Of a stretch of DNA of 64,000 bases, positions 3,850 to 32,747 are shown in pieces. Each line of letters starts with the position of its first letter. Positions within the stretch are counted from its first letter, which is position 1. Source of the stretch: a phage; sequence record PZ452581.1. One strand, written 5' to 3'. The notes under the pieces were generated by a model. The model ran no database searches. It was not told the DNA's origin and saw only the letters and a list, made by a program, of their open reading frames with translations. Position numbers and translations under genes: made by a program.

Positions 3850-4500
3850 ATGGGGCTTCGGCCCCTATTCTCGAGGAATCAAGTGATTATTTCTAAATTT
3901 ATTAAAGTGAAAATTGTACCATCAAATTTTAAACATTATCAATCAAAGGGTTATAAATTAACACCTCTTGGAGCGGTTAAACATGGATTTAGGTATTATG
4001 AAATTGATGTTAAAGTTGAAGACATTAAAGGTAGTACCGCGTATGTAAAATGCCGTTGCGATAAATGTGGAATTGAATATAACCAACGCATTGGAAGAAA
4101 CACTGATATTTGTCGTGATTGCCGTCATAAAGATAAAATGCGCAATAATTCATATGGTTCCGCGAATAAAGGAAAAACAGTAGAATGTATGCATGGCGTA
4201 AATCATCCAAGATGGAACCCAAATAAATCTGAAATGCGTGAATATATTTCATTGGTATATAAAGAAACTCGTAAGCATAAGAAAATTTGGTCAAAATGGC
4301 CAAATGCTGATAAAATAGGAGTGTGTGGTACAAAAGGCGCTTACCAACTTGATCATAAGGTATCTATCAAATACGGTTTTGATAATTTAATTCCTGCTAA
4401 AATAATTGGCGGTATTAATAATTTAGAAATAATCACTTGGGAATCTAACCGAGAAAAATCAAAAAGAAATAGTGTAGATCTTTGGGATTTACTAGAATGA
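3850..4500 (+). CDS. Free-standing HNH-family homing endonuclease (zinc-finger plus HNH-like motif)
   Basis: 216-aa ORF with Cys cluster CRCDKCG...CRDCRH and C-terminal DH...N...N motif (QLDHKVSIKYGFDNL...NNLEIITWESNREK); ATG at 3850 lies inside the hairpin, alternative in-frame GTG at 3883 preceded by GAGGA. Confidence 0.6.
   Translation: MGLRPLFSRNQVIISKFIKVKIVPSNFKHYQSKGYKLTPLGAVKHGFRYYEIDVKVEDIKGSTAYVKCRCDKCGIEYNQRIGRNTDICRDCRHKDKMRNNSYGSANKGKTVECMHGVNHPRWNPNKSEMREYISLVYKETRKHKKIWSKWPNADKIGVCGTKGAYQLDHKVSIKYGFDNLIPAKIIGGINNLEIITWESNREKSKRNSVDLWDLLE
3852..3865 (+). terminator. GC stem-loop GGGGC-TTCG-GCCCC after gene 18
   Basis: 5-bp GC stem with UUCG tetraloop directly after the gene 18 stop; overlaps the first in-frame ATG of the downstream HNH ORF. 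Confidence 0.5.
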
Positions 4501-4507
4501 TTCTAAA

Positions 4508-4525
4508 GGCCTGTTTCGGCAGGCC
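4508..4525 (+). terminator. Stem-loop GGCCTG...CAGGCC after the HNH ORF
   Basis: 6-bp inverted repeat directly downstream of the HNH stop codon. Confidence 0.4.
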
Positions 4526-4526
4526 A

Positions 4527-4534
4527 TATAAATA
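4527..4534 (+). promoter_or_regulatory. Late-promoter-like TATAAATA (distal, upstream of gene 19)
   Basis: Exact TATAAATA immediately 3-prime of the HNH-cassette hairpin, about 80 nt upstream of gene 19. Confidence 0.45.
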
Positions 4535-4585
4535 CACTATATCCTTAATTCTTTAATTCTATATGCCCTAGGTTAAACATAGGGA

Positions 4586-4593
4586 TATAAATA
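4586..4593 (+). promoter_or_regulatory. Late promoter TATAAATA (proximal) for gene 19
   Basis: Exact TATAAATA about 15 nt upstream of the gene 19 ATG. Confidence 0.6.
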
Positions 4594-4607
4594 CTACAGA
4601 GGCTAAT

Positions 4608-5099
4608 ATGTTTGTAGATGATGTAACACGAGCGTTTGAATCTGGTGATTTTGCTCGACCTAACTTATTCCAAGTAGAAATTTCTTATCTTGGACAAAAT
4701 TTTACGTTTCAATGTAAAGCCACTGCTTTACCAGCTGGTATTGTAGAAAAAATTCCAGTCGGATTTATGAACCGTAAAATTAACGTAGCAGGCGATCGTA
4801 CATTCGATGACTGGACTGTTACAGTAATGAACGATGAGGCACATGATGCTCGCCAGAAGTTTGTTGATTGGCAAAGCATTGCTGCTGGGCAAGGGAACGA
4901 AATTACTGGTGGAAAACCAGCAGAGTATAAAAAGAGCGCTGTTGTTCGCCAATATGCTCGTGACGCTAAAACTGTAACAAAAGAAGTCGAAATTAAAGGC
5001 CTGTGGCCTACCAACGTGGGTGAACTTCAATTAGATTGGGATTCAAACAATGAAATCCAAACCTTTGAAGTAACTCTTGCTCTCGATTATTGGGAATAA
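4608..5099 (+). CDS. 19: Tail tube protein (gp19)
   Basis: 163-aa ORF matching T4 gp19 as recalled. Confidence 0.95.
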   Translation: MFVDDVTRAFESGDFARPNLFQVEISYLGQNFTFQCKATALPAGIVEKIPVGFMNRKINVAGDRTFDDWTVTVMNDEAHDARQKFVDWQSIAAGQGNEITGGKPAEYKKSAVVRQYARDAKTVTKEVEIKGLWPTNVGELQLDWDSNNEIQTFEVTLALDYWE

Positions 5100-5105
5100 A
5101 ATGAA

Positions 5106-5121
5106 TGGGGAGAAATCCCCA
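5106..5121 (+). terminator. Stem-loop TGGGGA-GAAA-TCCCCA after gene 19
   Basis: 6-bp stem with GAAA tetraloop directly after the gene 19 stop. Confidence 0.5.
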
Positions 5122-5131
5122 TCCTGCTTAA

Positions 5132-6756
<1,625 letters not shown>

Positions 6757-6757
<1 letters not shown>

Positions 6758-7005
6758 TGGAAGGTTTAATTGAAGCTATTAAATCAAACGACCTCGTAGC
6801 CGCTCGTAAATTCTTTGCTGAAGCCATGGCTGCAAGAACGATTGATTTAATTAAAGAAGAAAAAATCGCTATCGCTCGTAATTTCTTAATCGAAGGTGAA
6901 GAACTTGATGATGAGGATGATGAAGACGAGGATGATGACGAAGATAGCGATGATAAAGACGACAAAAAAGACAAAGACTCTGACGAAGACGAGGATGATG
7001 AATAA
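6757..7005 (+). CDS. 67: Prohead core protein (gp67) with acidic C-terminal tail
   Basis: 82-aa ORF, C-terminal D/E-rich tract; ATG overlaps the gene 20 stop. Confidence 0.85.
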
Positions 7006-7430
7006 TGCTTCTGATCCCTGAAACTCATGAATTAGTTCTCGAGAATGTCGAAGCACTTATTCCTGAAGCACAGGGTCGCTTTGACGAATTGTCTTCTGCT
7101 TTAAATAAAGACGATATAAATACAATTGTCGAGAATATGCTTGATGATGAAACTGATTTAGCAATTGCATTAGCTTCTATTAATGAAGATATGCCGCTAA
7201 ATGAATTCATCGTTAAACATGTTTCTGCTCGTGGCGAAATTACACGTACTAAAGACCGCAAGACGCGTGAACGTAATGCATTTCAAACCACCGGGCTGTC
7301 TAAAGCAAAACGTAGACAAATTGCTCGCAAAGCTACCAAAACGAAGATTGCCAATCCAGCAGGTCAATCTCGTGCTCAGCGTAAGCGTAAAAAAGCTCTT
7401 AAACGCCGTAAAGCATTAGGATTAAGCTAA
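7005..7430 (+). CDS. 68: Prohead core protein (gp68)
   Basis: 141-aa ORF, basic C-terminus; position and size as in T4. Confidence 0.85.
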
Positions 7431-8068
7431 TGAATGAACCCCAATTACTAATTGAAACTTGGGGTCAACCTGGCGAAATTATTGATGGTGTGCCAATGCT
7501 TGAATCCCACGATGGAAAAGACTTAGGTTTAAAACCTGGTTTATACATCGAAGGAATATTCATGCAAGCGGAAGTCGTCAATAGAAATAAACGTCTTTAT
7601 CCAAAACGCATATTAGAAAAAGCGGTAAAAGACTATATCAATGAGCAAGTTTTAACTAAACAAGCTCTCGGAGAATTAAATCATCCTCCACGCGCTAATG
7701 TTGACCCGATGCAAGCCGCTATCATTATAGAAGATATGTGGTGGAAAGGAAATGACGTATACGGACGAGCTCGTGTTATTGAAGGTGACCATGGTCCTGG
7801 AGATAAATTAGCAGCTAATATTCGTGCCGGATGGATTCCAGGAGTTTCTTCTCGTGGATTAGGTTCATTGACTGACACAAATAAAGGTTATCGTATCGTA
7901 AACGAAGGATTCAAATTAACTGTAGGTGTTGATGCAGTATGGGGTCCAAGTGCTCCAGATGCATGGGTAACTCCTAAGGAAATTACCGAATCACAGACGG
8001 CGGAAGCCGATACAAGTGCCGATGACGCCTATATGGCTCTCGCAGAGGCCATGAAAAAAGCGTTATAA
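7430..8068 (+). CDS. 21: Prohead core protease (gp21)
   Basis: 212-aa ORF matching T4 gp21 as recalled. Confidence 0.93.
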   Translation: MNEPQLLIETWGQPGEIIDGVPMLESHDGKDLGLKPGLYIEGIFMQAEVVNRNKRLYPKRILEKAVKDYINEQVLTKQALGELNHPPRANVDPMQAAIIIEDMWWKGNDVYGRARVIEGDHGPGDKLAANIRAGWIPGVSSRGLGSLTDTNKGYRIVNEGFKLTVGVDAVWGPSAPDAWVTPKEITESQTAEADTSADDAYMALAEAMKKAL

Positions 8069-8071
8069 ATA
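8064..8071 (+). promoter_or_regulatory. Late promoter TATAAATA for gene 22
   Basis: Exact TATAAATA overlapping the gene 21 stop, about 27 nt upstream of gene 22. Confidence 0.6.
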
Positions 8072-8098
8072 TTATTATCTAAACAACAGGACTACAAA

Positions 8099-8908
8099 AT
8101 GCTTAAAGAACAACTGATTGCTGAAGCGCAAAAAATTGATGCTTCCGTTGCTCTTGATAGTATTTTCGAATCAGTTAATATTTCTCCGGAAGCAAAAGAA
8201 ACTTTCGGCACTGTATTCGAAGCTACCGTCAAGCAGCACGCCGTTAAATTAGCTGAATCTCATATCGCTAAAATTGCTGAAAAAGCAGAAGAAGAAGTAG
8301 AAAAAAATAAAGAAGAAGCCGAAGAAAAAGCTGAGAAGAAAATCGCTGAGCAAGCTTCTAAATTCATCGACCATCTTGCGAAAGAATGGCTCGCTGAAAA
8401 TAAATTAGCAGTTGATAAAGGCATCAAAGCCGAACTGTTTGAATCCATGCTTGGTGGATTAAAAGAGCTCTTTGTTGAACACAACGTTGTTGTTCCAGAA
8501 GAATCAGTTGATGTTGTAGCTGAAATGGAAGAAGAGCTGCAAGAACATAAAGAAGAATCAGCTCGTCTGTTCGAAGAACTCAATAAGCGTGACGCATATA
8601 TCAATTATGTGCAGCGTGAAGTGGCATTGAGCGAAAGTACTAAAGATCTGACTGAGTCTCAAAAAGAAAAAGTCTCTGCTCTGGTCGAAGGTATGGATTA
8701 TTCAGATGAATTCTCAAGTAAATTGAGTGCCATCGTAGAAATGGTGAAGAAGTCTAATAAAGATGAAAGCACTATTACTGAGGGTATAAATACTCCTGAT
8801 ACTGAAGCAGCCGGACTGAATTTCGTCACTGAAGCTGTAGAAGATAAAGCTGCACCTGGTGCAGAAGATATTGTAAGTGTATATGCGAAAGTCGCATCTC
8901 GTTTCTAA
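8099..8908 (+). CDS. 22: Major prohead scaffold protein (gp22)
   Basis: 269-aa acidic coiled-coil-rich ORF matching T4 gp22 in size and position. Confidence 0.9.
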   Translation: MLKEQLIAEAQKIDASVALDSIFESVNISPEAKETFGTVFEATVKQHAVKLAESHIAKIAEKAEEEVEKNKEEAEEKAEKKIAEQASKFIDHLAKEWLAENKLAVDKGIKAELFESMLGGLKELFVEHNVVVPEESVDVVAEMEEELQEHKEESARLFEELNKRDAYINYVQREVALSESTKDLTESQKEKVSALVEGMDYSDEFSSKLSAIVEMVKKSNKDESTITEGINTPDTEAAGLNFVTEAVEDKAAPGAEDIVSVYAKVASRF

Positions 8909-8926
8909 TTTTAAAGGTTAACACAA

Positions 8927-10492
8927 ATGACTATCAAAACTAAAGCTGAACTTTTGAACAAATGGAAACCATTACTGGAAGGTGAAGGTTTACCGGAAAT
9001 TGCTAATAGCAAACAAGCGATTATCGCTAAAATCTTTGAAAACCAGGAAAAAGATTTCCAGACAGCTCCAGAGTACAAAGACGAAAAAATCGCTCAGGCG
9101 TTCGGTTCTTTCTTAACAGAAGCTGAAATCGGTGGTGACCACGGTTACAACGCTACTAACATCGCTGCTGGTCAGACTTCTGGCGCAGTAACTCAGATTG
9201 GCCCAGCTGTTATGGGTATGGTACGTCGTGCTATTCCTAACCTGATTGCTTTCGATATTTGCGGTGTTCAGCCGATGAACAGCCCGACTGGCCAGGTATT
9301 CGCACTGCGCGCAGTATATGGTAAAGACCCAATCGCTTCCGGTGCTAAAGAAGCATTCCACCCAATGTATGGTCCAGATGCAATGTTCTCTGGTCAGGGT
9401 GCTGCTAAGAAATTCCCAGCTTTGGCTGCTAGCACAGAAACTGTTGTAGGTGACATCTATACTCACTTCTTCCAGGAAACTGGTACTGTGTATCTGCAAG
9501 CTTCTGCTCAAGTAACAATTAGTGCAAGCGCAAATGATGCAGATAAATTAGATGCTGAAATTAAGAAACAAATGGAAGCTGGTGTACTGGTAGAAATCGC
9601 TGAAGGTATGGCTACTTCTATCGCTGAACTTCAGGAAGGTTTCAACGGTTCTACCGATAACCCATGGAATGAAATGGGCTTCCGTATCGATAAACAAGTT
9701 ATCGAAGCTAAATCTCGCCAGCTGAAAGCTGCTTACTCTATCGAATTAGCACAAGACCTCCGCGCTGTTCACGGTATGGATGCTGATGCTGAACTGTCTG
9801 GTATTCTGGCTACCGAAATCATGCTGGAAATCAACCGCGAAGTTGTTGATTGGATTAACTACTCAGCTCAGGTTGGTAAATCTGGTATGACCCTGACTCC
9901 GGGTTCTAAAGCTGGCGTATTTGACTTCCAGGATCCGATTGATATTCGTGGTGCTCGCTGGGCGGGTGAATCCTTTAAAGCTCTGTTGTTCCAGATTGAC
10001 AAAGAAGCAGTTGAAATTGCTCGTCAGACCGGTCGTGGTGAAGGTAACTTCATTATCGCTTCCCGTAACGTAGTTAACGTTCTGGCTTCAGTTGATACTG
10101 GCATTTCTTATGCTGCACAGGGTCTGGCTACCGGCTTTAACACTGATACTACCAAGTCAGTATTTGCGGGTGTTCTGGGTGGTAAATACCGTGTATATAT
10201 CGACCAGTATGCTAAACAGGATTATTTCACTGTAGGTTATAAAGGTCCGAACGAAATGGATGCTGGTATTTACTATGCTCCATATGTAGCTCTGACTCCG
10301 CTGCGTGGTTCCGATCCGAAGAACTTCCAACCAGTAATGGGATTCAAAACTCGTTACGGTATCGGTATCAACCCATTTGCAGAATCCGCTGCTCAGGCTC
10401 CGGCTTCTCGCATCCAGAGCGGTATGCCTTCTATTCTGAATAGCCTTGGTAAAAACGCTTACTTCCGCCGTGTATATGTTAAAGGTATCTAA
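8927..10492 (+). CDS. 23: Major capsid protein (gp23)
   Basis: 521-aa ORF; N-terminus MTIKTKAELLNKWKPLLEGEGLPEIANSK matches T4 gp23 as recalled. Confidence 0.97.
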   Translation: MTIKTKAELLNKWKPLLEGEGLPEIANSKQAIIAKIFENQEKDFQTAPEYKDEKIAQAFGSFLTEAEIGGDHGYNATNIAAGQTSGAVTQIGPAVMGMVRRAIPNLIAFDICGVQPMNSPTGQVFALRAVYGKDPIASGAKEAFHPMYGPDAMFSGQGAAKKFPALAASTETVVGDIYTHFFQETGTVYLQASAQVTISASANDADKLDAEIKKQMEAGVLVEIAEGMATSIAELQEGFNGSTDNPWNEMGFRIDKQVIEAKSRQLKAAYSIELAQDLRAVHGMDADAELSGILATEIMLEINREVVDWINYSAQVGKSGMTLTPGSKAGVFDFQDPIDIRGARWAGESFKALLFQIDKEAVEIARQTGRGEGNFIIASRNVVNVLASVDTGISYAAQGLATGFNTDTTKSVFAGVLGGKYRVYIDQYAKQDYFTVGYKGPNEMDAGIYYAPYVALTPLRGSDPKNFQPVMGFKTRYGIGINPFAESAAQAPASRIQSGMPSILNSLGKNAYFRRVYVKGI

Positions 10493-10507
10493 TCTTTGAC
10501 GATTTAA

Positions 10508-10523
10508 GGGACCTTCGGGTCCC
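10508..10523 (+). terminator. Stem-loop GGGACC-TTCG-GGTCCC followed by a T-rich tract (after gene 23)
   Basis: 6-bp stem with UUCG loop followed by TTTAGTTGTTTTT. Confidence 0.6.
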
Positions 10524-10540
10524 TTTAGTTGTTTTTATGG

Positions 10541-10548
10541 TATAAATA
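10541..10548 (+). promoter_or_regulatory. Late promoter TATAAATA for gene 24
   Basis: Exact TATAAATA about 28 nt upstream of the gene 24 ATG. Confidence 0.6.
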
Positions 10549-10575
10549 AATCATATAAACCAAAAGGAAAGCGCA

Positions 10576-11859
10576 ATGGCTAAAATCAACGAACTTCTGC
10601 GCGAATCAACTACAACGAATAGCAACTCAATCGGTCGCCCAAATCTCGTTGCTTTGACTCGCGCTACCACTAAATTAATATATTCTGACATTGTAGCAAC
10701 GCAAAGAACTAATCAACCTGTTGCTGCTTTTTATGGTATCAAATACCTTAACCCAGATAACGAATTTACATTTAAAACTGGTGCTACTTACGCTGGCGAA
10801 GCTGGGTATGTAGACCGAGAACAAATCACAGAATTAACAGAAGAGTCTAAATTAACTCTCAATAAAGGCGATTTATTCAAATATAATAATATCGTTTATA
10901 AAGTATTAGAAGATACACCATTTGCTGATATTGAAGAAAGCGATTTAGAATTAGCTCTTCAGATTGCAATTGTTCTTTTAAAGGTTCGTTTATTTTCTGA
11001 TGCTGCAGTAACAAGCAAATTTGAAAGCTCTGATAGTGAAATTGCGGATGCTAGATTCCAGATTAATAAATGGCAAACCGCAGTTAAATCTCGTAAACTT
11101 AAAACTGGCATTACGGTTGAATTAGCACAAGATTTAGAAGCAAATGGATTCGATGCTCCTAATTTCTTGGAAGATTTGCTTGCAACTGAAATGGCGGATG
11201 AAATCAATAAAGATATTCTGCAGTCTTTGATTACAGTATCAAAACGCTATAAAGTCACAGGAATTACTGATACTGGATTCATTGATTTGAGTTATGCATC
11301 TGCACCTGAAGCTGGTCGTTCATTATACCGAATGGTGTGTGAAATGGTTTCGCATATCCAAAAAGAATCAACTTATACTGCAACGTTCTGTGTTGCTTCA
11401 GCTCGTGCCGCTGCGATTCTTGCTGCATCAGGTTGGTTAAAACATAAACCAGAAGATGACAAATATCTTTCACAAAATGCCTACGGGTTCTTAGCTAATG
11501 GTTTACCGCTTTATTGCGATACCAACAGCCCATTAGATTATGTAATCGTTGGCGTAGTAGAAAATATCGGTGAAAAAGAAATTGTTGGATCAATTTTCTA
11601 TGCTCCATATACAGAAGGTCTTGACTTAGATGACCCTGAACATGTAGGTGCATTTAAAGTTGTAGTTGATCCAGAAAGTTTGCAGCCATCTATCGGTTTA
11701 TTGGTTAGATATGCTTTATCTGCAAATCCTTATACTGTAGCAAAAGATGAAAAAGAAGCAAGAATAATTGATGGTGGAGACATGGATAAAATGGCGGGTC
11801 GTTCAGATTTGTCTGTTTTATTAGGTGTTAAGCTACCAAAAATTATCGTTGATGAATAA
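10576..11859 (+). CDS. 24: Capsid vertex protein (gp24)
   Basis: 427-aa ORF, gp23 paralog in size and position. Confidence 0.92.
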   Translation: MAKINELLRESTTTNSNSIGRPNLVALTRATTKLIYSDIVATQRTNQPVAAFYGIKYLNPDNEFTFKTGATYAGEAGYVDREQITELTEESKLTLNKGDLFKYNNIVYKVLEDTPFADIEESDLELALQIAIVLLKVRLFSDAAVTSKFESSDSEIADARFQINKWQTAVKSRKLKTGITVELAQDLEANGFDAPNFLEDLLATEMADEINKDILQSLITVSKRYKVTGITDTGFIDLSYASAPEAGRSLYRMVCEMVSHIQKESTYTATFCVASARAAAILAASGWLKHKPEDDKYLSQNAYGFLANGLPLYCDTNSPLDYVIVGVVENIGEKEIVGSIFYAPYTEGLDLDDPEHVGAFKVVVDPESLQPSIGLLVRYALSANPYTVAKDEKEARIIDGGDMDKMAGRSDLSVLLGVKLPKIIVDE

Positions 11860-25383: not shown

Positions 25384-25387
25384 CAAT

Positions 25388-25405
25388 GGGGACCGAAAGG
25401 TCCCC
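25388..25405. terminator. Stem-loop GGGGACC-GAAA-GGTCCCC between convergent gene 54 and the minus-strand alt cluster
   Basis: 7-bp GC stem with GAAA loop followed by a T-rich run. Confidence 0.55.
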
Positions 25406-25411
25406 ATATTT

Positions 25412-25702
25412 TTATTTACGGAATGAAATAAAAGCAGAAACTGAAGCAACTAAACTGTCTTCAATATAAACTTCAATTTTTACTGGAGCTTCTGACTCAA
25501 ATTTACCTGTTACTACACCTTGGAAAATGCTTTCAGTCTGTTCTGGCTTTGAAAAATTTTCAGAAGGAAAAATTCCGAACTTTTTATCTGTTCCAAAAAT
25601 TTTGATAAATTCATCATAAACTGCTTCATTAAAAGCATTATCAGCAGGAATAACGCCTTCAACTACAAGTTCTTGACCTAAAAAGCGCAAAGAAGATTTC
25701 AT
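25412..25702 (-). CDS. Hypothetical protein (alt.-3-like)
   Basis: 96-aa ORF, ATG preceded by GAGGA; downstream of an early promoter. Confidence 0.6.
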   Translation of the reverse strand: MKSSLRFLGQELVVEGVIPADNAFNEAVYDEFIKIFGTDKKFGIFPSENFSKPEQTESIFQGVVTGKFESEAPVKIEVYIEDSLVASVSAFISFRK

Positions 25703-25710
25703 TTTGTGTT

Positions 25711-25763
25711 CCTCATGTTATGTCAGTAAAATTACTATAACACAACACGAGGGACTTGTAAAC
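25711..25763 (-). promoter_or_regulatory. Early promoter plus leader cassette, copy A
   Basis: Minus strand: -35 GTTTAC, 18-nt spacer ending in TGT, -10 TATAGT, then leader with GAGGA; 50 of 53 nt identical to copy B at 41471-41523. Confidence 0.6.
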
Positions 25764-27820
25764 TACATCTTGAACTTTTTAGACATTCCGTTGATGTTAA
25801 CCAAAGAAGCCAAGATTTGAGAAACTTCGTTTTCCTCTTCTTTTGATTCTTCTACAAGGAATTGATTAAACCCAGCCATTGGACGAACTTCACCAGTTTC
25901 CATCAGATGATCGCCATCATATATCGATTCTTCTAATTGTTCAGAAGGAGGAACGATTGTGCCTTCGATTAGATACTTGTTATAAGCAGTTTCTTTCATC
26001 ATGTACGTGCTTACTTTATTAATCTTCAACAAAATTCCACGCGGTAAAATAACTTCAGCTTCTGATGGAAATCCTGATAAATGACCTGGAACGATAACTT
26101 TAATTCGCTCAGCTCCTTTTATTACCATACCTACGCTAGTTTCAGCATCTTCATTAGCATATGCAGAATGACTACCCATATGCATTAAATCTTCAGCATC
26201 AACGGAACCTTCTCCTTCACCAGAAAATACTGCACCGGAATCATCTAGAGCCATATAGTTTTTACCATGCTCACCGAAGATATTTGGTTTAAGCGATGTT
26301 GATACGAAGTTCTTGAAATAGAACATTTTATTTTCAATATTATGACGTAAAGTTTTAAAGGTAACTTCTTGTCCACGGTAAAGTGTAGTTCCCGGAGGAA
26401 GAACTGATCCTTTGGCGAATGCAGAATCCAGCGTCTCGATGTGTTTAATAGCTCGTTCCATGTATTCTTCACGGGTAGAATCTGGTTTACCCAAGAGGAA
26501 CGAGTTCATTTCAACATATGAATCTGCACAATAATCTTCAATTACATCAGACTCAGCCTGAGTCAGTCCTTTTGGAGTTACTTCGGTGCTTGCGTATTCA
26601 TATGCCTGAGCAGCAGATTCATTAATCAATTTATAAATGCCATTCATGACAAATTGAATAATAGCTACCTTTTCGTCTGGCGTGGCTTTAGAACCTTTAA
26701 CTAAATCATTGATAATTTTCTTAATAACATCAAAGCTATTAGAAATATTAATGTCAGCGAGATCGCTCAAAATTTTATCGGTTTTATAATCAAAGAATTC
26801 TTTATTCTTTAAATATTCTTGAGAACCTTGATATGTTATATCGCTCTGCAGCTTGATAGATGGATCACGTAAACGTGCATGGGCCAATGCAATATGATTT
26901 CGGAAGCTTTCTAGTTCATAATCGTTAGATTTAAAACGAGAAGCACTTCTCATACCACCGATAGCTCCTTTGCCGAAGTTTGAACCAATCTGAATAACGC
27001 CAGAGTTCATTGGTCCTTCTGCTTTATATACCGGAACTTTAGATTCAAACTCTTGATATTTCTTGGCAGCGAAGCTATCGCCTTGAAGTGAAGCATCGAC
27101 AGTAGAGTATTGAGCTTGTGCTGCTAATCGACGACTAATTTTAGTTTTCTGAATAACAGCTTGATCCGTGCGCTTATCATTTTCTAAAGCAATAGAAGCA
27201 GCAACAGCAACAGCTTTAGGAACAGCATTACCTGTTTTAACATCTACATAAACATCACCAACCTTTGATTCAACTTTTGTGAATAACTCAGTTGAAATAG
27301 GAGGTACACCTGGAATGTCTTCTAAATTGGCATTTTTACGGTAAACCATAATATATGCATACTTTTTATCGTAATCCCAGATTTCCTTTAAAAGAACATA
27401 TCGACCTGCTCCTTTAGTACGTACTAAACGGTCAGCAATAACTTGCATTTGACGAGCTGCGCCATTTGTTTTACTTTTTAGTACGCGGAATAGGCATGCG
27501 TCAATTTTATACTGTTTCATTGTTTGAAGAGCAGTATCAAAAACCGCATTAATAACACCAATTGGATTTCCACCCAAGTTTTTAAGTTTAACTAATGATA
27601 GTTTCTCATTAACACCTATCATTACGATATGCATCATTTTATCGCCTGGCTTAACGTTTTTATTTGTATCACCGCCAGAGGTGTATGTACAAAATCTAAA
27701 TCCAGGAAGCACGCTTTCTTCACCGGCTTGAATAGCAAAAATTTGAGGTATTTTATGCTTGGGATTTAAGTTAACAACCGGCGCCGAAGCGCCGTCAAAT
27801 AATTCTGTAATAAGTTCCAT
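25763..27820 (-). CDS. Alt-like mono-ADP-ribosyltransferase, downstream paralog
   Basis: 685-aa ORF; N-terminal MELITELFD and first ~200 aa similar to the upstream 698-aa gene; C-terminal R-S-E ART motifs (YRGQ..., FVSTSL, EAEVILPRG). Confidence 0.8.
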   Translation of the reverse strand: MELITELFDGASAPVVNLNPKHKIPQIFAIQAGEESVLPGFRFCTYTSGGDTNKNVKPGDKMMHIVMIGVNEKLSLVKLKNLGGNPIGVINAVFDTALQTMKQYKIDACLFRVLKSKTNGAARQMQVIADRLVRTKGAGRYVLLKEIWDYDKKYAYIMVYRKNANLEDIPGVPPISTELFTKVESKVGDVYVDVKTGNAVPKAVAVAASIALENDKRTDQAVIQKTKISRRLAAQAQYSTVDASLQGDSFAAKKYQEFESKVPVYKAEGPMNSGVIQIGSNFGKGAIGGMRSASRFKSNDYELESFRNHIALAHARLRDPSIKLQSDITYQGSQEYLKNKEFFDYKTDKILSDLADINISNSFDVIKKIINDLVKGSKATPDEKVAIIQFVMNGIYKLINESAAQAYEYASTEVTPKGLTQAESDVIEDYCADSYVEMNSFLLGKPDSTREEYMERAIKHIETLDSAFAKGSVLPPGTTLYRGQEVTFKTLRHNIENKMFYFKNFVSTSLKPNIFGEHGKNYMALDDSGAVFSGEGEGSVDAEDLMHMGSHSAYANEDAETSVGMVIKGAERIKVIVPGHLSGFPSEAEVILPRGILLKINKVSTYMMKETAYNKYLIEGTIVPPSEQLEESIYDGDHLMETGEVRPMAGFNQFLVEESKEEENEVSQILASLVNINGMSKKFKM

Positions 27821-27823
27821 GAT

Positions 27824-29920
27824 TTATCCTTGAACGAACTTGTAAGGCATGTTTGTAATATCTATGCAAGATGCAATAATTCCAAGAGATGATTCTACTT
27901 TTTGTTTAACATTTGATGAAACAAATGATGCAAAGTCAACTCTGTCTTCTATTTCAATATCACCTGTCATTGCAACTACTTCACCAGTTTCCATTAGACG
28001 GTCACCGTCATAAATGACTGATTCGGTGAGTTCTTCCGTAGTCATAACTTCAGCTTGAATGAGTTTTGTATTATTAGATGTTGTTCCATCATTATTAGAA
28101 GCATCAGTTATTTTATTAACTTTGACCATCAATCCGCGTGGTAGAATTACTTCAGCTTCTGTTGCTATTCCGAGACTTCCTGGATATACAACATTAACTT
28201 TATGAGCTCCATCAATTGCCCATCCTATTTGAACTTTAACGTATTCAGGATTTTCTTTATACGCTCTTATTTCGTTTGGATTAATAGTTATTCCTTCTTC
28301 ATTTTTATCAACTGTCAATTCGTTACGAGCTTCTGGTTCTAAAAGACCAATACCAGCATGTGTAATTCCAAAACGTCCAAAAATGATAGGAGTTAAAGAA
28401 GTAGATACAAAATTTCTGAAATAGAATACTTTATTTTTAACTAATGCTTCGTATATAGGAGCAGTCATGCTTTGAGCACGATAAACTGTAATGCCTTCTG
28501 GTATACGGTCACCGTTTTCAAAAGCTGAATCTAAGTTATTTATAGCAGATTCAATTTCTTTTTCACTCATTACATCATATCGTTCTGGATTGTAACGACC
28601 CAAAAGAAGATTATTGATGTCAGTATATCCTGATCCACAATACTCTCTAATGCCGCGCTTTTGTGATGGAGTATATTTAGAACCATCACGGGCAATAGTA
28701 ATATCAATCATTGGACCTGCACCAATTCCAGAAAAGCTATAAATCATTCGTTTGAGGAATTTAGTTTTTGCCGCGTTCCAGGAATTTTTAGTTATTTCTT
28801 CCCAGACTTCATCTGGCTGTCCTTTACGTGTTTTATTATGTTTATCAAGCCATTTATCTTTGTATTCTTCAAAGAATTTATTAACAGCTGCTGCGTATTT
28901 CTCTAAACATTTTATTGAAGTAGTTGGTTCATTTTTGATCGCGTTAAAAATTACGTCTTTAATTTTTTCAGAAACTTCATTAACCTCACTTTTTGAAAAG
29001 AATTTATAGTCATAATGAAGTTCATCTGCAGTTCCTTCAGCAATAATTTTTGCTGCCTTAGTTTTAGAAGCCAATGAATTAATTCCAAGTTTCATTTCTT
29101 CTGCTTCGGGAATTAAAGGAGCGGTAGCAGGTTTATTGAAATTAGCTGCGGTAGATTCATACTTCTGGAATAATTCGCTTTCAAATCTAGAAGATTCTAA
29201 TGATTGACTTTGTGCAATTGCTCTACGGGAAATTTTAACTTTAACAATAACAGCTTGGTCAGAACGTTTATCATTTTCTTGCGCAATAGATGCAGCAATT
29301 GCCTCATTTTTAGTTACTTGAGCTCCAGTATCTTTATTGATATAAACATCACCGACCTTCGATTCAACTTTAGTAAAGAGCTCGGTGCTAATTTCCGGAA
29401 CTCCTGGAATGTCTTCTAGTGATACATTTTTGCGATGTATAAGAATATATGCATACTTTTTATCGTAATCCCAGAGTTCCTTAAGAAGGACGTATCTGCC
29501 ACCTGAACGACTGCGGATAAGTCTATCAGCAATAAGTTGAATTTGACGAGCTTGACCAGCAGTTTTAGACTTAAGAATACGGAGCATACAGGCATCAATT
29601 TTATACTGACGCATCGTCTGCATCGCAACAGTAAAAACTGAATTGATGTAATTAATTGGGCTTGGACCGAGACCTTTTAATTTAGCAATTGAACCTTTAG
29701 CAGTTAATGTAAAAGGAACAATATGCATCATTTTATCGCCCATCTTTAAATCGCGATTAGTATCACCTCCAGATGTATAAGTACATAAACGAAAACCTGG
29801 TTGTTCAATTGCGTCATCAACATGAACTGAAAAAATTTGTGGTATTTTCTTCTTTGGATTTAAGTTTGTAATCGGAAGAGTAGTATCTTCGTCAAATAAT
29901 TCTGTAATGAGTTCCATCAT
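27824..29920 (-). CDS. alt: Alt mono-ADP-ribosyltransferase (capsid-packaged, late promoter)
   Basis: 698-aa ORF; C-terminal ART motifs (YRAQ, FVSTSL, EAEVILPRG); own TATAAATA late promoter. Confidence 0.85.
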   Translation of the reverse strand: MMELITELFDEDTTLPITNLNPKKKIPQIFSVHVDDAIEQPGFRLCTYTSGGDTNRDLKMGDKMMHIVPFTLTAKGSIAKLKGLGPSPINYINSVFTVAMQTMRQYKIDACMLRILKSKTAGQARQIQLIADRLIRSRSGGRYVLLKELWDYDKKYAYILIHRKNVSLEDIPGVPEISTELFTKVESKVGDVYINKDTGAQVTKNEAIAASIAQENDKRSDQAVIVKVKISRRAIAQSQSLESSRFESELFQKYESTAANFNKPATAPLIPEAEEMKLGINSLASKTKAAKIIAEGTADELHYDYKFFSKSEVNEVSEKIKDVIFNAIKNEPTTSIKCLEKYAAAVNKFFEEYKDKWLDKHNKTRKGQPDEVWEEITKNSWNAAKTKFLKRMIYSFSGIGAGPMIDITIARDGSKYTPSQKRGIREYCGSGYTDINNLLLGRYNPERYDVMSEKEIESAINNLDSAFENGDRIPEGITVYRAQSMTAPIYEALVKNKVFYFRNFVSTSLTPIIFGRFGITHAGIGLLEPEARNELTVDKNEEGITINPNEIRAYKENPEYVKVQIGWAIDGAHKVNVVYPGSLGIATEAEVILPRGLMVKVNKITDASNNDGTTSNNTKLIQAEVMTTEELTESVIYDGDRLMETGEVVAMTGDIEIEDRVDFASFVSSNVKQKVESSLGIIASCIDITNMPYKFVQG

Positions 29921-29940
29921 ATCCTCTCTAGTGTTTATTC

Positions 29941-29948
29941 TATTTATA
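29941..29948 (-). promoter_or_regulatory. Late promoter TATAAATA (minus strand) for alt
   Basis: Plus-strand TATTTATA about 21 nt upstream of the alt ATG at 29920. Confidence 0.6.
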
Positions 29949-29953
29949 AAATT

Positions 29954-29971
29954 AAAGGCCCGAAGGCCTTT
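29954..29971 (-). terminator. Stem-loop AAAGGCC-CGAA-GGCCTTT upstream of the alt late promoter
   Basis: 7-bp stem hairpin overlapping the stop codon of the 62-aa ORF. Confidence 0.5.
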
Positions 29972-30158
29972 AATAATCTATTGGTAAGAGAGTACGATAT
30001 ATTTCAAACTTTGGACCTTTTTCATAGGCATCAAATGTTTCTGTGAATTTATTATAAGCATATGCATCTATAAATTCAATCATAATTTGTGATACAGAAG
30101 TAGAAACATCTCCACCTTCTTTTTGAGCAACGACAATTGTTTCTAAGTAAGCTTTCAT
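29970..30158 (-). CDS. Hypothetical protein
   Basis: 62-aa ORF, ATG start overlapping the ligase stop. Confidence 0.5.
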   Translation of the reverse strand: MKAYLETIVVAQKEGGDVSTSVSQIMIEFIDAYAYNKFTETFDAYEKGPKFEIYRTLLPIDY

Positions 30159-31618
30159 AGACCAGTTACCTCATGAAAATCACCAAATACATCCTCGAAT
30201 GTATTAGCTTTAGTTTTATCTTCACGTAAACGAATCGCAATTGGAAGAAATAATTTTACGTAATCAGTGCGGCCATCAGATTTTAGCCAACCGTTGCATT
30301 CGCACTCTAGAATTTTTCCAATATAATAATTTTGGTTTTCCATAATGCGAGTACGGTCAAGTTCATGTGATTTTACACCGGCTTTATCTTTTAAGCCTGA
30401 ACCAGCATTTACTTTAATTTTTCCACACTCTGATTCAAGAATAAATCCACCTGCTTTAGTAGGGTCTTTACGGTGAGGATAAATTCCTACAATTTTTAAA
30501 TCAACATCAATTACTTCTTTAAATTTATAGAGATTTTTTGAACGAGCATTTTCCCACAATCCATCGGTATTTTTGAGAATAATACCTTCAAGACCTTGGT
30601 CAATATACTTTTTATAAATTACCTTAGCTTCATCTAGGTTATTTACTACCTGGTTTTCAATTAAAATTACTTTATCATATCCTGATGTCATTTGTTCTAG
30701 TTTAGAAAAACGTACATCATATTTTAAACGAAACGCCGGAAGACCGTATATTTCTACCAACGGGACATAATCCCAGACCTGAAACTTCATGCATTTGGCT
30801 TCTTTTTCGGAAATGGTTCCTTTTAAGGATTTATTGGCGATTCCATTAGAAGCAGTACGAGATTCCGCTACTTCGGCGAATTCTTTAGCTTTACTAATTT
30901 CAGGATAAGCATCAAAAAGAAAATCTAGGCCTTCTGGTTCCTTTTTAACTTGCTCATGGTATACCAATTCGCCATCAATTAACACACCTTCTGGATGAAT
31001 CTGGCGGGCTTCAGCAGTCATTTTGATTAACTCTTCCTTAAGAAGATCTAATCCTAGATATTCATTACCAGCTCGTGATAAAAGACGAACATCATCTAAT
31101 TCATCACCTCGGACTTCAGCAAAACACCGAGCTCCATCTGCTTTTAACTGTGCAAAGGCTGGAAACTTGATATTCTTATTAATGCCTTTTTCATCATAAG
31201 AACTTGCCAGCATTTGAGGTTGTTCAGGAATTAAACCTGGCCAAACTTTGTTTGCAATAGATACTGAAGCACCGCATTCAAGGTCTCGCATCATCACTCG
31301 ACGCAAAACTTCAACATCATCCTTTTTACCATCGGTGATATATCCAGTCAATTCCTCAATTGCAGCATTTCCGGTCAATTTCCGAGTAGCTAACGTGAAT
31401 TCAATGAAGTCAAGCATATCGGTAATGGTCAGCATTCCAAAACTCTGGGTAGCAATACCAGGTTTAGGCCATTTCTTGATATAATACTGTAACCCACGAG
31501 AATAAGTTAGACGATATACTCGTTTAAGCAATTCATTATCTTTATTCTTTTCAAGAATTGCTTGCTTCTGCTTAGTTGATCCAATAGATGCTATTTCATT
31601 CAGAATTTTAAGAATCAT
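30155..31618 (-). CDS. 30: ATP-dependent DNA ligase (gp30)
   Basis: 487-aa ORF; adenylation motif AQLKADGARC; matches T4 DNA ligase as recalled. Confidence 0.95.
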   Translation of the reverse strand: MILKILNEIASIGSTKQKQAILEKNKDNELLKRVYRLTYSRGLQYYIKKWPKPGIATQSFGMLTITDMLDFIEFTLATRKLTGNAAIEELTGYITDGKKDDVEVLRRVMMRDLECGASVSIANKVWPGLIPEQPQMLASSYDEKGINKNIKFPAFAQLKADGARCFAEVRGDELDDVRLLSRAGNEYLGLDLLKEELIKMTAEARQIHPEGVLIDGELVYHEQVKKEPEGLDFLFDAYPEISKAKEFAEVAESRTASNGIANKSLKGTISEKEAKCMKFQVWDYVPLVEIYGLPAFRLKYDVRFSKLEQMTSGYDKVILIENQVVNNLDEAKVIYKKYIDQGLEGIILKNTDGLWENARSKNLYKFKEVIDVDLKIVGIYPHRKDPTKAGGFILESECGKIKVNAGSGLKDKAGVKSHELDRTRIMENQNYYIGKILECECNGWLKSDGRTDYVKLFLPIAIRLREDKTKANTFEDVFGDFHEVTGL

Positions 31619-31884
31619 TGTTCATCCTTCAGAGTTTGATTTACAGCTCTATTATAAATCAATTCATCATTAAGCTCAGTCAAAGACCTATGATATGTAG
31701 TTCTAACTTTATTTCCTTGCATCCAGTGCTTGACGTAAATGAAACCTTGCTCTACACATTTTTTAAAAATTCGTTCGTCTTTTTGAGCTCGGAATTCTGG
31801 ATTGCATCTAAAAAATTGATTTACGTGACCGTAATCACGTGTAGTATTACCTTCATTTTCATAAATAGTGTGAACGACAAACAT
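31615..31884 (-). CDS. Hypothetical protein (30.1-like)
   Basis: 89-aa ORF, ATG start, overlapping neighbours. Confidence 0.55.
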   Translation of the reverse strand: MFVVHTIYENEGNTTRDYGHVNQFFRCNPEFRAQKDERIFKKCVEQGFIYVKHWMQGNKVRTTYHRSLTELNDELIYNRAVNQTLKDEQ

Positions 31885-32747
31885 TAGAATGCTCCTTGGA
31901 AAATATTATCACCACTAGTAAATCTATTAAAATACCCTGCATCACCAGGCTTAGTATAACTCCACGTATGGAATGGATTCATATGATACGGGTGTGTATA
32001 ATATGGATTATATGGATGTGTATAATATGGATTATACGGATTAAATCCAGGAGTTCTCCAGGTAGTGTTCCAACGAAAAGAATCGTTTTTAACCATCTTC
32101 TCAATTACATCTTTTATAGCTTTTTCACTATCAAAACTTTCTTTATTTTCCTTCGGTGAAAAAAGCTTATTTTCTACATCATTCCATGTATAAACTCGCT
32201 GAGCGGTTTTTGGAATATTGTCACGCTCTCCTCGCGCCATCCAATAAACAGGAACATTTAATATTTCACTCGCATGATCGCAATGGTGAGCGAGATCGTC
32301 AATGTAACAAATTACGTTATATTTCTCTTTTGCCTTTTTGAACAACTCTTCTTTTGAAGAATCATGACCACACATCATTACTTCTGAGAAGGCACCAGGA
32401 AAAAGAGCATTCAAATTAAATTGACGATTCAACAGAGCGTCAATAGAATCACCCAATGCTGTAACAGCTACAAAATTATAATCTTCTTTTAATTTGTTAA
32501 TTACACACAGTGCATCTTTATATGGAGACAAATAACGAATAAAATCTGATCGATTATATTTTTCAATTAACTTGACACCAAGTTCTTCATCACAATTAAA
32601 GAGTTTACCCGGAGAAATAAATTTCTCATCTTGGATCATTTTTAAAATATGTTCTAACGGAAGATTATATTTCTGAGCAAAATAAGGAAGGCCTGATTGC
32701 CAGCTTAAACATACTCCATCAATATCAGTCAAAATAGTAGGCTTCAT
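31884..32747 (-). CDS. HAD-superfamily hydrolase-like protein with C-terminal Tyr/Pro-rich repeat (30.2-like)
   Basis: 287-aa ORF; N-terminal ILTDIDGV resembles HAD motif I; C-terminal NPYNPYYTHPYNPYYTHPY repeat. Confidence 0.6.
   Translation of the reverse strand: MKPTILTDIDGVCLSWQSGLPYFAQKYNLPLEHILKMIQDEKFISPGKLFNCDEELGVKLIEKYNRSDFIRYLSPYKDALCVINKLKEDYNFVAVTALGDSIDALLNRQFNLNALFPGAFSEVMMCGHDSSKEELFKKAKEKYNVICYIDDLAHHCDHASEILNVPVYWMARGERDNIPKTAQRVYTWNDVENKLFSPKENKESFDSEKAIKDVIEKMVKNDSFRWNTTWRTPGFNPYNPYYTHPYNPYYTHPYHMNPFHTWSYTKPGDAGYFNRFTSGDNIFQGAF
31993..32040. repeat. Tandem direct repeat, 24-nt unit x2, inside the 30.2-like gene
   Basis: tgtgtataatatggattatatgga followed by tgtgtataatatggattatacgga (1 mismatch). 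Confidence 0.8.

Follow-up and report, generated by a model that had tools for sequence, protein, structure and literature searches.

Organization of the alt locus

The DNA considered here is a 64,000 nt stretch of phage DNA (PZ452581.1), referred to below as the window; positions are window positions unless otherwise indicated. Two adjacent minus-strand genes in the window encode Alt-like ADP-ribosyltransferases (ARTs), and it is apparent from the analyses presented below that they are divergent paralogs, neither of which has decayed. A reading of the window made from its letters alone (the sequence-only reading) had described them as a tandem pair situated 3 nt apart. That description was borne out by the open reading frames (ORFs), by a BLASTP alignment of the two products (42% identity overall, E = 3e-159) and by matches of both proteins to the Pfam family PF03496 (ADPrib_exo_Tox). 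The scores for the upstream protein (129.1 bits, E = 1.7e-37) and the downstream protein (72.8 bits, E = 3e-20) both exceed the curated cut-off of 23.4 bits. The order of the genes, from gene 54 and alt.-3 to alt.1 and gene 30, is that expected for the Tevenvirinae Alt family, with gene 54 on the plus strand, convergent with the alt genes. The features of the locus are collected in Table 1.

The source of the window is a T2/T6-type Tequatrovirus. A 5-kb query covering the alt locus gave a 98.4% match to Shigella phage KRT47 (Tequatrovirus ime09), and 356 phage records were matched over at least 80% of the length of the same query.

The upstream ORF begins with two adjacent ATG codons, at 29920 and 29917. 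A GAGG Shine–Dalgarno sequence (29926-29923) is properly spaced only for the latter, and a start at 29917, which gives a protein beginning MELITELFD, agrees with the annotations of T4, T2, T6 and KRT47. The second ATG was preferred for these reasons. The length of 698 aa given in the sequence-only reading therefore applies only from the first ATG, and 697 aa is favoured; its figure of 685 aa for the downstream protein stands, as does its statement that both proteins start with MELITELFD, provided that the upstream one is read from the second ATG.

Table 1. Features of the alt locus in the window and of the corresponding array in phage QL01
Feature	Coordinates	Strand	Remarks
Gene 30 ligase	30155-31618	minus	
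alt.1 homolog	29970-30158	minus	62 aa
Hairpin UUAAAGGCC-UUCG-GGCCUUUAA	29951-29974	minus	overlaps alt.1 stop codon; followed by U-rich run
Late promoter TATAAATA	29941-29948	minus	T4-type; for the alt operon
Upstream alt gene	27824-29917	minus	697 aa from ATG at 29917; 698 aa from ATG at 29920
Upstream N-terminal alpha/beta domain	29204-29917	minus	aa 1-238; AlphaFold; lineage-conserved
Upstream effector module	28028-29203	minus	aa ~239-630; helical central domain plus ART; exchanged part
Second TATAAATA	28537-28544	minus	inside upstream ORF, 717 nt before downstream start
AAGGA Shine–Dalgarno sequence of downstream gene	27827-27831	minus	within last codons of upstream gene
Spacer between alt genes	27821-27823	minus	3 nt (ATC); junction TAA-ATC-ATG
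Downstream alt paralog	25763-27820	minus	685 aa
Downstream N-terminal alpha/beta domain	27107-27820	minus	aa 1-238; same secondary-structure order as upstream
Left 9-bp direct repeat CTAAAAAGT	27473-27481	minus	left endpoint of T4 deletion
Downstream linker and all-helical central domain	26411-27106	minus	aa ~239-470; AlphaFold
Downstream ART catalytic domain	25937-26410	minus	aa ~471-628
Downstream C-terminal tail	25766-25936	minus	aa 629-685; predicted disorder
Right 9-bp direct repeat CTAAAAAGT	25774-25782	minus	right endpoint of T4 deletion; copies 1,699 bp apart
alt.-3 homolog	25412-25702	minus	96 aa; DUF5498; last gene before terminator
Bidirectional hairpin terminator	25386-25407	both	GC-rich, 9-bp stem; between gene 54 (+) and alt.-3 (-)
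QL01 triple alt array	4495-10755 of QL01 locus		three genes

Comparison of the two proteins

The sequence-only reading had claimed a shared N-terminus and a differing centre, and pairwise alignment agreed with it: identity between the paralogs is 67% for aa 1-238 but drops to 13% centrally, and it amounts to 32% for the ART domain and 35% for the tail. AlphaFold models with mean confidence (predicted local distance difference test, pLDDT) of 75.6 and 75.0 have an identical four-part architecture, comprising, from N- to C-terminus, an alpha/beta domain of ~225 residues, a short flexible linker, a central domain extending to ~470 and a beta-rich ART domain with a poorly ordered tail. In both proteins the predicted central domain is all-helical; for that of the downstream protein, the Pfam scan gave no match. 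In the downstream model, pLDDT falls below 50 from aa 629.

The R-S-E motifs that the sequence-only reading had pointed out are present in both proteins, at R480, S505-T-S507 and E587-A-E589 in the upstream one and at R482, S507-T-S509 and E587-A-E589 in the downstream one. Their contexts (YRAQ/YRGQ around the arginine, S-T-S, and E-A-E-V-I-L-P) are found in both, and the R, S-T-S and E-x-E residues are invariant among 22 aligned members of the family. The loops between S-T-S and E-x-E, in contrast, are unalignable between the paralogs. The pair also has the ART fold that characterizes R-S-E mono-ADP-ribosyltransferases, and each protein matches phrog_802 (PHROG 802, Alt) from end to end (upstream, E = 3.8e-272; downstream, E = 7.4e-256). 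Precomputed annotation assigns the family PF26846 (Tevenvirinae_ADPRT), dedicated to such proteins, to 113 of the 120 homologs listed, the exceptions being truncated fragments (P0008, P0010). The family was not among the matches of either protein in the local Pfam scan, the copy of Pfam used there probably being one without PF26846. By their motifs, both proteins would be catalytically complete, arginine-specific mono-ADP-ribosyltransferases of the Alt type.

T4 Alt and the upstream protein share the locus, the late promoter, the R/S-T-S/E-x-E motif and the ITE-6 and LTE sites discussed below. Overall identity is 70%: the first 238 aa are 99% identical and the tail 92%, as against 31% for the central region and 61% for the ART domain. 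The upstream gene is thus a T2/T6-type allele, distinct from T4 alt. The downstream protein is 42% identical to T4 Alt overall, 7% in the central region and 34% in the ART domain. Neither gene, then, has the close central and catalytic similarity to T4 Alt from which functional equivalence might be argued, and the targets of T4 Alt (RNA polymerase alpha R265, MazF R84, EF-Tu) should not be assumed for either protein of the window.

Sequence identity is only 18-23% for the arginine-specific mono-ADP-ribosyltransferase toxins of the C3/VIP2/iota type (Vis, C3bot2, CPILE-a, Certhrax and VIP2), a range that spans all five. They use other delivery domains, in contrast to the Tevenvirinae-specific N-terminal domain (PF26846) and capsid delivery of Alt.

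Origin of alt.-1 and alt.-2 in T4

How many full-length copies T4 carries had been left undecided in the sequence-only reading, which proposed a comparison with T4, T2 and T6. T4 has a single full-length alt gene (682 aa, NP_049811) followed by a remnant, alt.-1 (61 aa) and alt.-2 (67 aa); T2 and T6 have the intact pair. The T4 annotation attributes alt.-1 and alt.-2 to an old duplication involving the first part of alt. That candidate explanation was rejected in favour of a stump of the downstream paralog, on the basis of sequence identity and of a deletion junction. T4 alt.-1 (NP_049810) is 95% identical to aa 1-56 of the downstream protein and alt.-2 (NP_049809) 98% identical to its aa 62-116, as compared with only ~60% for the upstream gene. 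The DNA of T4 aligns to the window in two blocks (94% and 96% identity), separated in the window by 1,699 bp, and the direct repeat CTAAAAAGT is present there as two intact copies, one at each end, and as a single copy at the T4 junction (examined at 5005-5213 of the T4 locus). Because of this two-block alignment and the distribution of the repeat, it is concluded that T4 has lost 1,699 bp of a complete paralog, codons ~114-682, by microhomology-mediated deletion, and that a frameshift has split the remaining stump into alt.-1 and alt.-2.

Exactly the T4 junction is common to 91 phage records, some of them from environmental isolates; RB55, RB59, vB_EcoM_112, HY03 and Salmonella phage SG1 are among the phages that have it. 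The T4-type deletion is therefore that of a natural minority clade and not a laboratory event. The downstream protein is found at ≥95% identity in 397 phage records, the next matches falling below 60%; since 397 records have it and 91 have the T4 junction, the intact pair is the majority state.

The same pair, with products of 685 and 697 aa and a 3-nt gap, is present in T2 (AP018813, EcT2_00208/00209) and T6 (AP018814, EcT6_00197/00198). Identity to the window is 98.6-98.9% for the upstream protein and 98.4-98.5% for the downstream protein. Apart from the annotation of the downstream gene, in T2 and T6 merely 'hypothetical protein', there is essentially no difference. RB51, ime09, KRT47 and others also have the tandem pair, and in RB51 and ime09 the full-length downstream gene bears the name 'alt.-2'.

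Mosaic structure of the upstream gene

The nucleotide identity of the upstream gene to T4 alt is 94-99% over codons 1-238, 34-72% over codons ~239-626, with a rise to 81% in the final ~30 codons of that stretch, and 97% over the last ~40 codons of the gene. The opposite pattern was obtained with the phage QL01, a member of the genus Dhakavirus in which three tandem Alt-like genes (YP_009202932/31/30; 694, 681 and 707 aa), separated by gaps of 3 nt, occupy the same genomic context. The first of these (slot 1) is 84-97% identical in nucleotide sequence to the upstream gene over aa 478-627 and 41-62% identical in the flanks, the N-terminal domain being at about 42-62%; at the protein level, identity is 64% in the central region and 95% in the ART domain. 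The T4-like N-terminus and tail, set against the QL01-like ART domain, show that the effector module has been exchanged between genera. The upstream gene is accordingly a mosaic: its N-terminal domain and tail are conserved, and the effector module enclosed by them has been swapped between phage genera. Such modular exchange suggests host-driven diversification of the Alt enzymes.

Slots 1 and 3 of QL01 pair with the upstream and downstream genes of the window, respectively. Slot 3 is the nearest relative of the effector part of the downstream protein: over aa 239-415 the latter is 43% identical to slot 3 and 13% identical to the upstream copy, and slot 3 and the downstream protein share the ending ...KFKM. 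The N-terminal domains of QL01 have just 41-46% identity to those of the window. The middle gene of QL01 represents a third effector type, its ART domain being no more than 38% identical to that of any other copy compared.

Distribution, selection and age

The upstream allele of the window is present at ≥90% identity in ~317 records, and ~211 records, those of the T4 type included, have it at 60-80%. In phage OE5505 a T4-type alt gene is combined with an intact downstream gene, from which it follows that the two slots assort independently. Across relatives, the size of the alt array ranges from one to three genes.

When each gene was compared with its counterparts in T2, T6 and KRT47, 26-90 synonymous and 3-13 nonsynonymous differences were found. 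The resulting ratio of nonsynonymous to synonymous divergence (dN/dS) is 0.02-0.05 for both genes, at a dS of up to 0.24. Both genes are intact and under strong purifying selection, and neither is a pseudogene; the possibility raised in the sequence-only reading, that one copy might be a pseudogene, is rejected by these values.

In the N-terminal domain the DNA of the paralogs is 58-83% identical; synonymous divergence is ordinary there, and a single patch, of 32 bp, is identical. This comparison of the N-terminal domains gave no indication of broad gene conversion between the paralogs. Both paralog types have been distinct lineages since before the split of Tequatrovirus and Dhakavirus, and a tandem pair is also present in a metagenome contig (SRR23924977_2808, 2242-6423), where the proteins are 63% (upstream) and 74% (downstream) identical to those of the window and the context, ligase...alt.-3...gene 54, is the same. 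Judged from these sequences, the alt duplication is old. At the place in this contig where alt.1 would be expected, no ORF was called in a 240-nt gap.

Prohead-protease sites

T4 Alt is cleaved by the prohead protease, gp21, at ITE-6 and LTE-619 to give a mature form of 68.2 kDa (PMC5694885), a mass that was reproduced from residues 7-619 of T4 Alt. Both proteins of the window begin MELITE|LFD and retain the ITE-6 site. At the position aligned with T4 LTE-619 the upstream protein has LTE-632; in the downstream protein E630 is aligned with the T4 site, and the L-x-E motif is LEE-631, offset by 1 residue and coincident with the onset of predicted disorder. As sequence motifs, then, the gp21 sites of the Alt family are discernible in both proteins. 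The downstream protein also has the tail motif Y-D-G-D...L-M-E-T-G-E, invariant across the Alt family, and its tail is presumed, by analogy with the T4 precedent for a gp21-removed Alt tail (PMC5694885), to be a C-terminal propeptide. The N-terminal domain is presumed to be a capsid-targeting or delivery module. Retention of the ITE-6 and L-x-E sites suggests that both Alt proteins are packaged and injected.

Transcription signals

The late promoter ahead of the pair has an TATAAATA counterpart at the equivalent position in T2, T6, KRT47, T4 and OE5505. Just upstream of it lies a hairpin that is likely to be a terminator or an RNA-end structure. Its predicted RNA fold has an energy of -14.5 kcal/mol (z = -3.8), none of 200 shuffled sequences folded as well, and the OE5505 annotation places a terminator at the equivalent position. 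No terminator-like site was found on the minus strand between 29940 and 25407, in a search of the interval from the late promoter to the bidirectional terminator, and that terminator is likely to be the 3' end of the alt transcript.

The sequence-only reading had assigned a late promoter to the upstream copy alone. This is correct for the intergenic space and incorrect for the locus as a whole, given the second TATAAATA inside the upstream ORF. The internal sequence, which overlaps conserved A-I-N-N codons, is kept in T2, T6 and KRT47 but not in T4 and OE5505. It could serve the downstream gene as an extra late promoter, or it could simply result from the protein-coding constraint at these codons. 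Since OE5505 nonetheless retains an intact downstream gene, the internal sequence is not required.

Proposed function of the paralogs

T4 Alt is made late, is present at ~40 copies in the prohead core and is injected with the DNA (PMC9958956, PMC9026906). It ADP-ribosylates RNA polymerase alpha at R265, MazF at R84, EF-Tu and over 20 further proteins (PMC9958956, PMC9026906, PMC5694885, PMC8120803), its targets numbering at least 27 (PMC8120803).

By extension from T4, the following scheme is proposed. Both genes would be transcribed late as part of a shared transcript, the translation of the second being coupled to that of the first. Both proteins would enter the prohead core by means of their shared N-terminal region, would be trimmed by gp21 at ITE-6 and at an L-x-E motif ~55-65 residues from the C-terminus, and would be injected with the phage DNA. 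Each would then ADP-ribosylate arginines in a different set of host proteins; the divergent helical central domain, together with the variable loops between S-T-S and E-x-E, would determine which targets are chosen. A role for these loops in target choice is established for C3-like ARTs. The paralogs would thus complement each other, with no redundancy between them, and one of the two activities would be missing from T4 and its close relatives. Different target specificities, as suggested in the sequence-only reading, are plausible in view of the sequence divergence. The account as a whole (old intact paralogs, the deletion in T4, the mosaic gene, co-expression, packaging, injection and different targets) is regarded as reasonably likely, its sequence-level parts being observed directly and the expression, packaging, activity and targets of the pair being inferred from the sequences.

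Several considerations weigh against this account. Virion proteomics of a phage with both copies was not found in the literature searched, nor was direct evidence of expression, packaging, cleavage or activity of the downstream protein. The argument for different targets is one of sequence divergence. The downstream residue that aligns with the T4 cleavage site lies in Q-L-E, an L-x-E motif being obtained only after the 1-residue shift. The internal TATAAATA may give the downstream gene a separate late transcript. T4 Alt is itself non-essential (PMC9026906), and the 91 records that are without the second gene include natural isolates, so that growth on some hosts, at least, does not depend on this gene.

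The last two points would also be expected if the downstream copy were a decaying or functionless duplicate of which the T4 state, a frameshifted 128-codon remnant in T4 and 90 other records, is the endpoint. That explanation is highly improbable and can be regarded as essentially excluded, inasmuch as the frame is unbroken and full-length, every catalytic residue is retained and the dN/dS values indicate no relaxation of selection. Conservation at ≥95% in 397 records, and the orthologous slots in Dhakavirus and in the divergent metagenomic lineage, are likewise at odds with decay. A different possibility is that the paralogs are redundant and have one common set of targets (RNA polymerase alpha and others), duplication serving only to raise the injected dose. 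Such redundancy would be in keeping with the common architecture, catalytic motif, promoter and N-terminal domain, and with the promiscuity already documented for T4 Alt (PMC8120803). A dosage duplicate, however, would be expected to remain similar or to be homogenized, yet broad gene conversion was not observed, the central regions are just 13% and the ART domains 32% identical, the loops between S-T-S and E-x-E cannot be aligned, and the two types have been separate since before the two genera diverged. The depth and age of this divergence make redundancy unlikely.

It could also be supposed that the downstream enzyme is made late and, without being packaged, acts late in infection in the producing cell, its substrates being, for example, proteins of the host or of the phage at the time of assembly. 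Proteomic evidence of packaging was not found, the possible internal late promoter could uncouple expression of the gene, and the C-terminal cleavage motif is off the exact position, all of which would accord with this idea. Against it stand the propeptide and gp21 site, MELITE|LFD in both paralogs, the N-terminal domain with its 67% identity and same predicted fold, and the invariant tail motif, and it is considered improbable. Injection of both enzymes, each with its own set of targets, continues to be the preferred interpretation.

Relation to previous knowledge

The tandem alt pair is already known from the T2 and T6 reference genomes and from hundreds of records, and as a genome feature it is ordinary in this phage group. 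Both genes are entered in RefSeq as Alt-like RNA polymerase ADP-ribosyltransferases, Pfam has a dedicated family (PF26846), and alt paralogs, including T4 alt.-1 and alt.-2, were noted in a comparative paper of 2006 (PMC1524935). The sequence-only reading had also raised the matter of identity to a known and characterized pair. The pair is indeed known (98.4-98.9% identity in T2 and T6); functional characterization of the second Alt enzyme was not found within the literature searched. The reading of alt.-1 and alt.-2 as the product of a deletion and the exchange of effectors between genera are small refinements and not discoveries.

Reviews still count three T4 ARTs. The corresponding statement for the T-even phages (Alt, ModA and ModB) rests on T4, a carrier of the deletion, and most relatives encode a fourth, strongly conserved ART, for which a search for targets has apparently never been made. 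It is put at about even chances that most natural T-even phages inject two Alt-type enzymes, the downstream one being an unstudied effector with its own targets and the locus a polymorphic-effector array. If so, Alt biochemistry would all have come from a phage that lost the second enzyme, and the downstream enzyme might act on a host-defence protein, much as T4 Alt acts on MazF. The locus would then consist of a conserved delivery domain and a cleavable tail with effector modules swapped between genera, in one to three copies.

Neighbouring genes

The alt.-3 homolog is probably carried on the same late transcript as the alt genes. A sigma-70, T4-early-like promoter match (TTTACA-17-TATAGT, extended TG; 25734-25762, minus strand) is situated ahead of it, in the 60-nt gap that follows the downstream alt paralog. 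Mutants of T4 Alt.-3 with C-terminal extensions evade the CmdTAC defence system (PMC11618068).

The alt.1 homolog matches the Pfam family PF24647 ('Phage blade protein') with an E value of 7.5e-29. A homolog of gene 30.2 (31884-32747, minus strand, 287 aa) has a Pro/Tyr/His-rich tail that ends in a tandem NPYYTHPY NPYYTHPY repeat.

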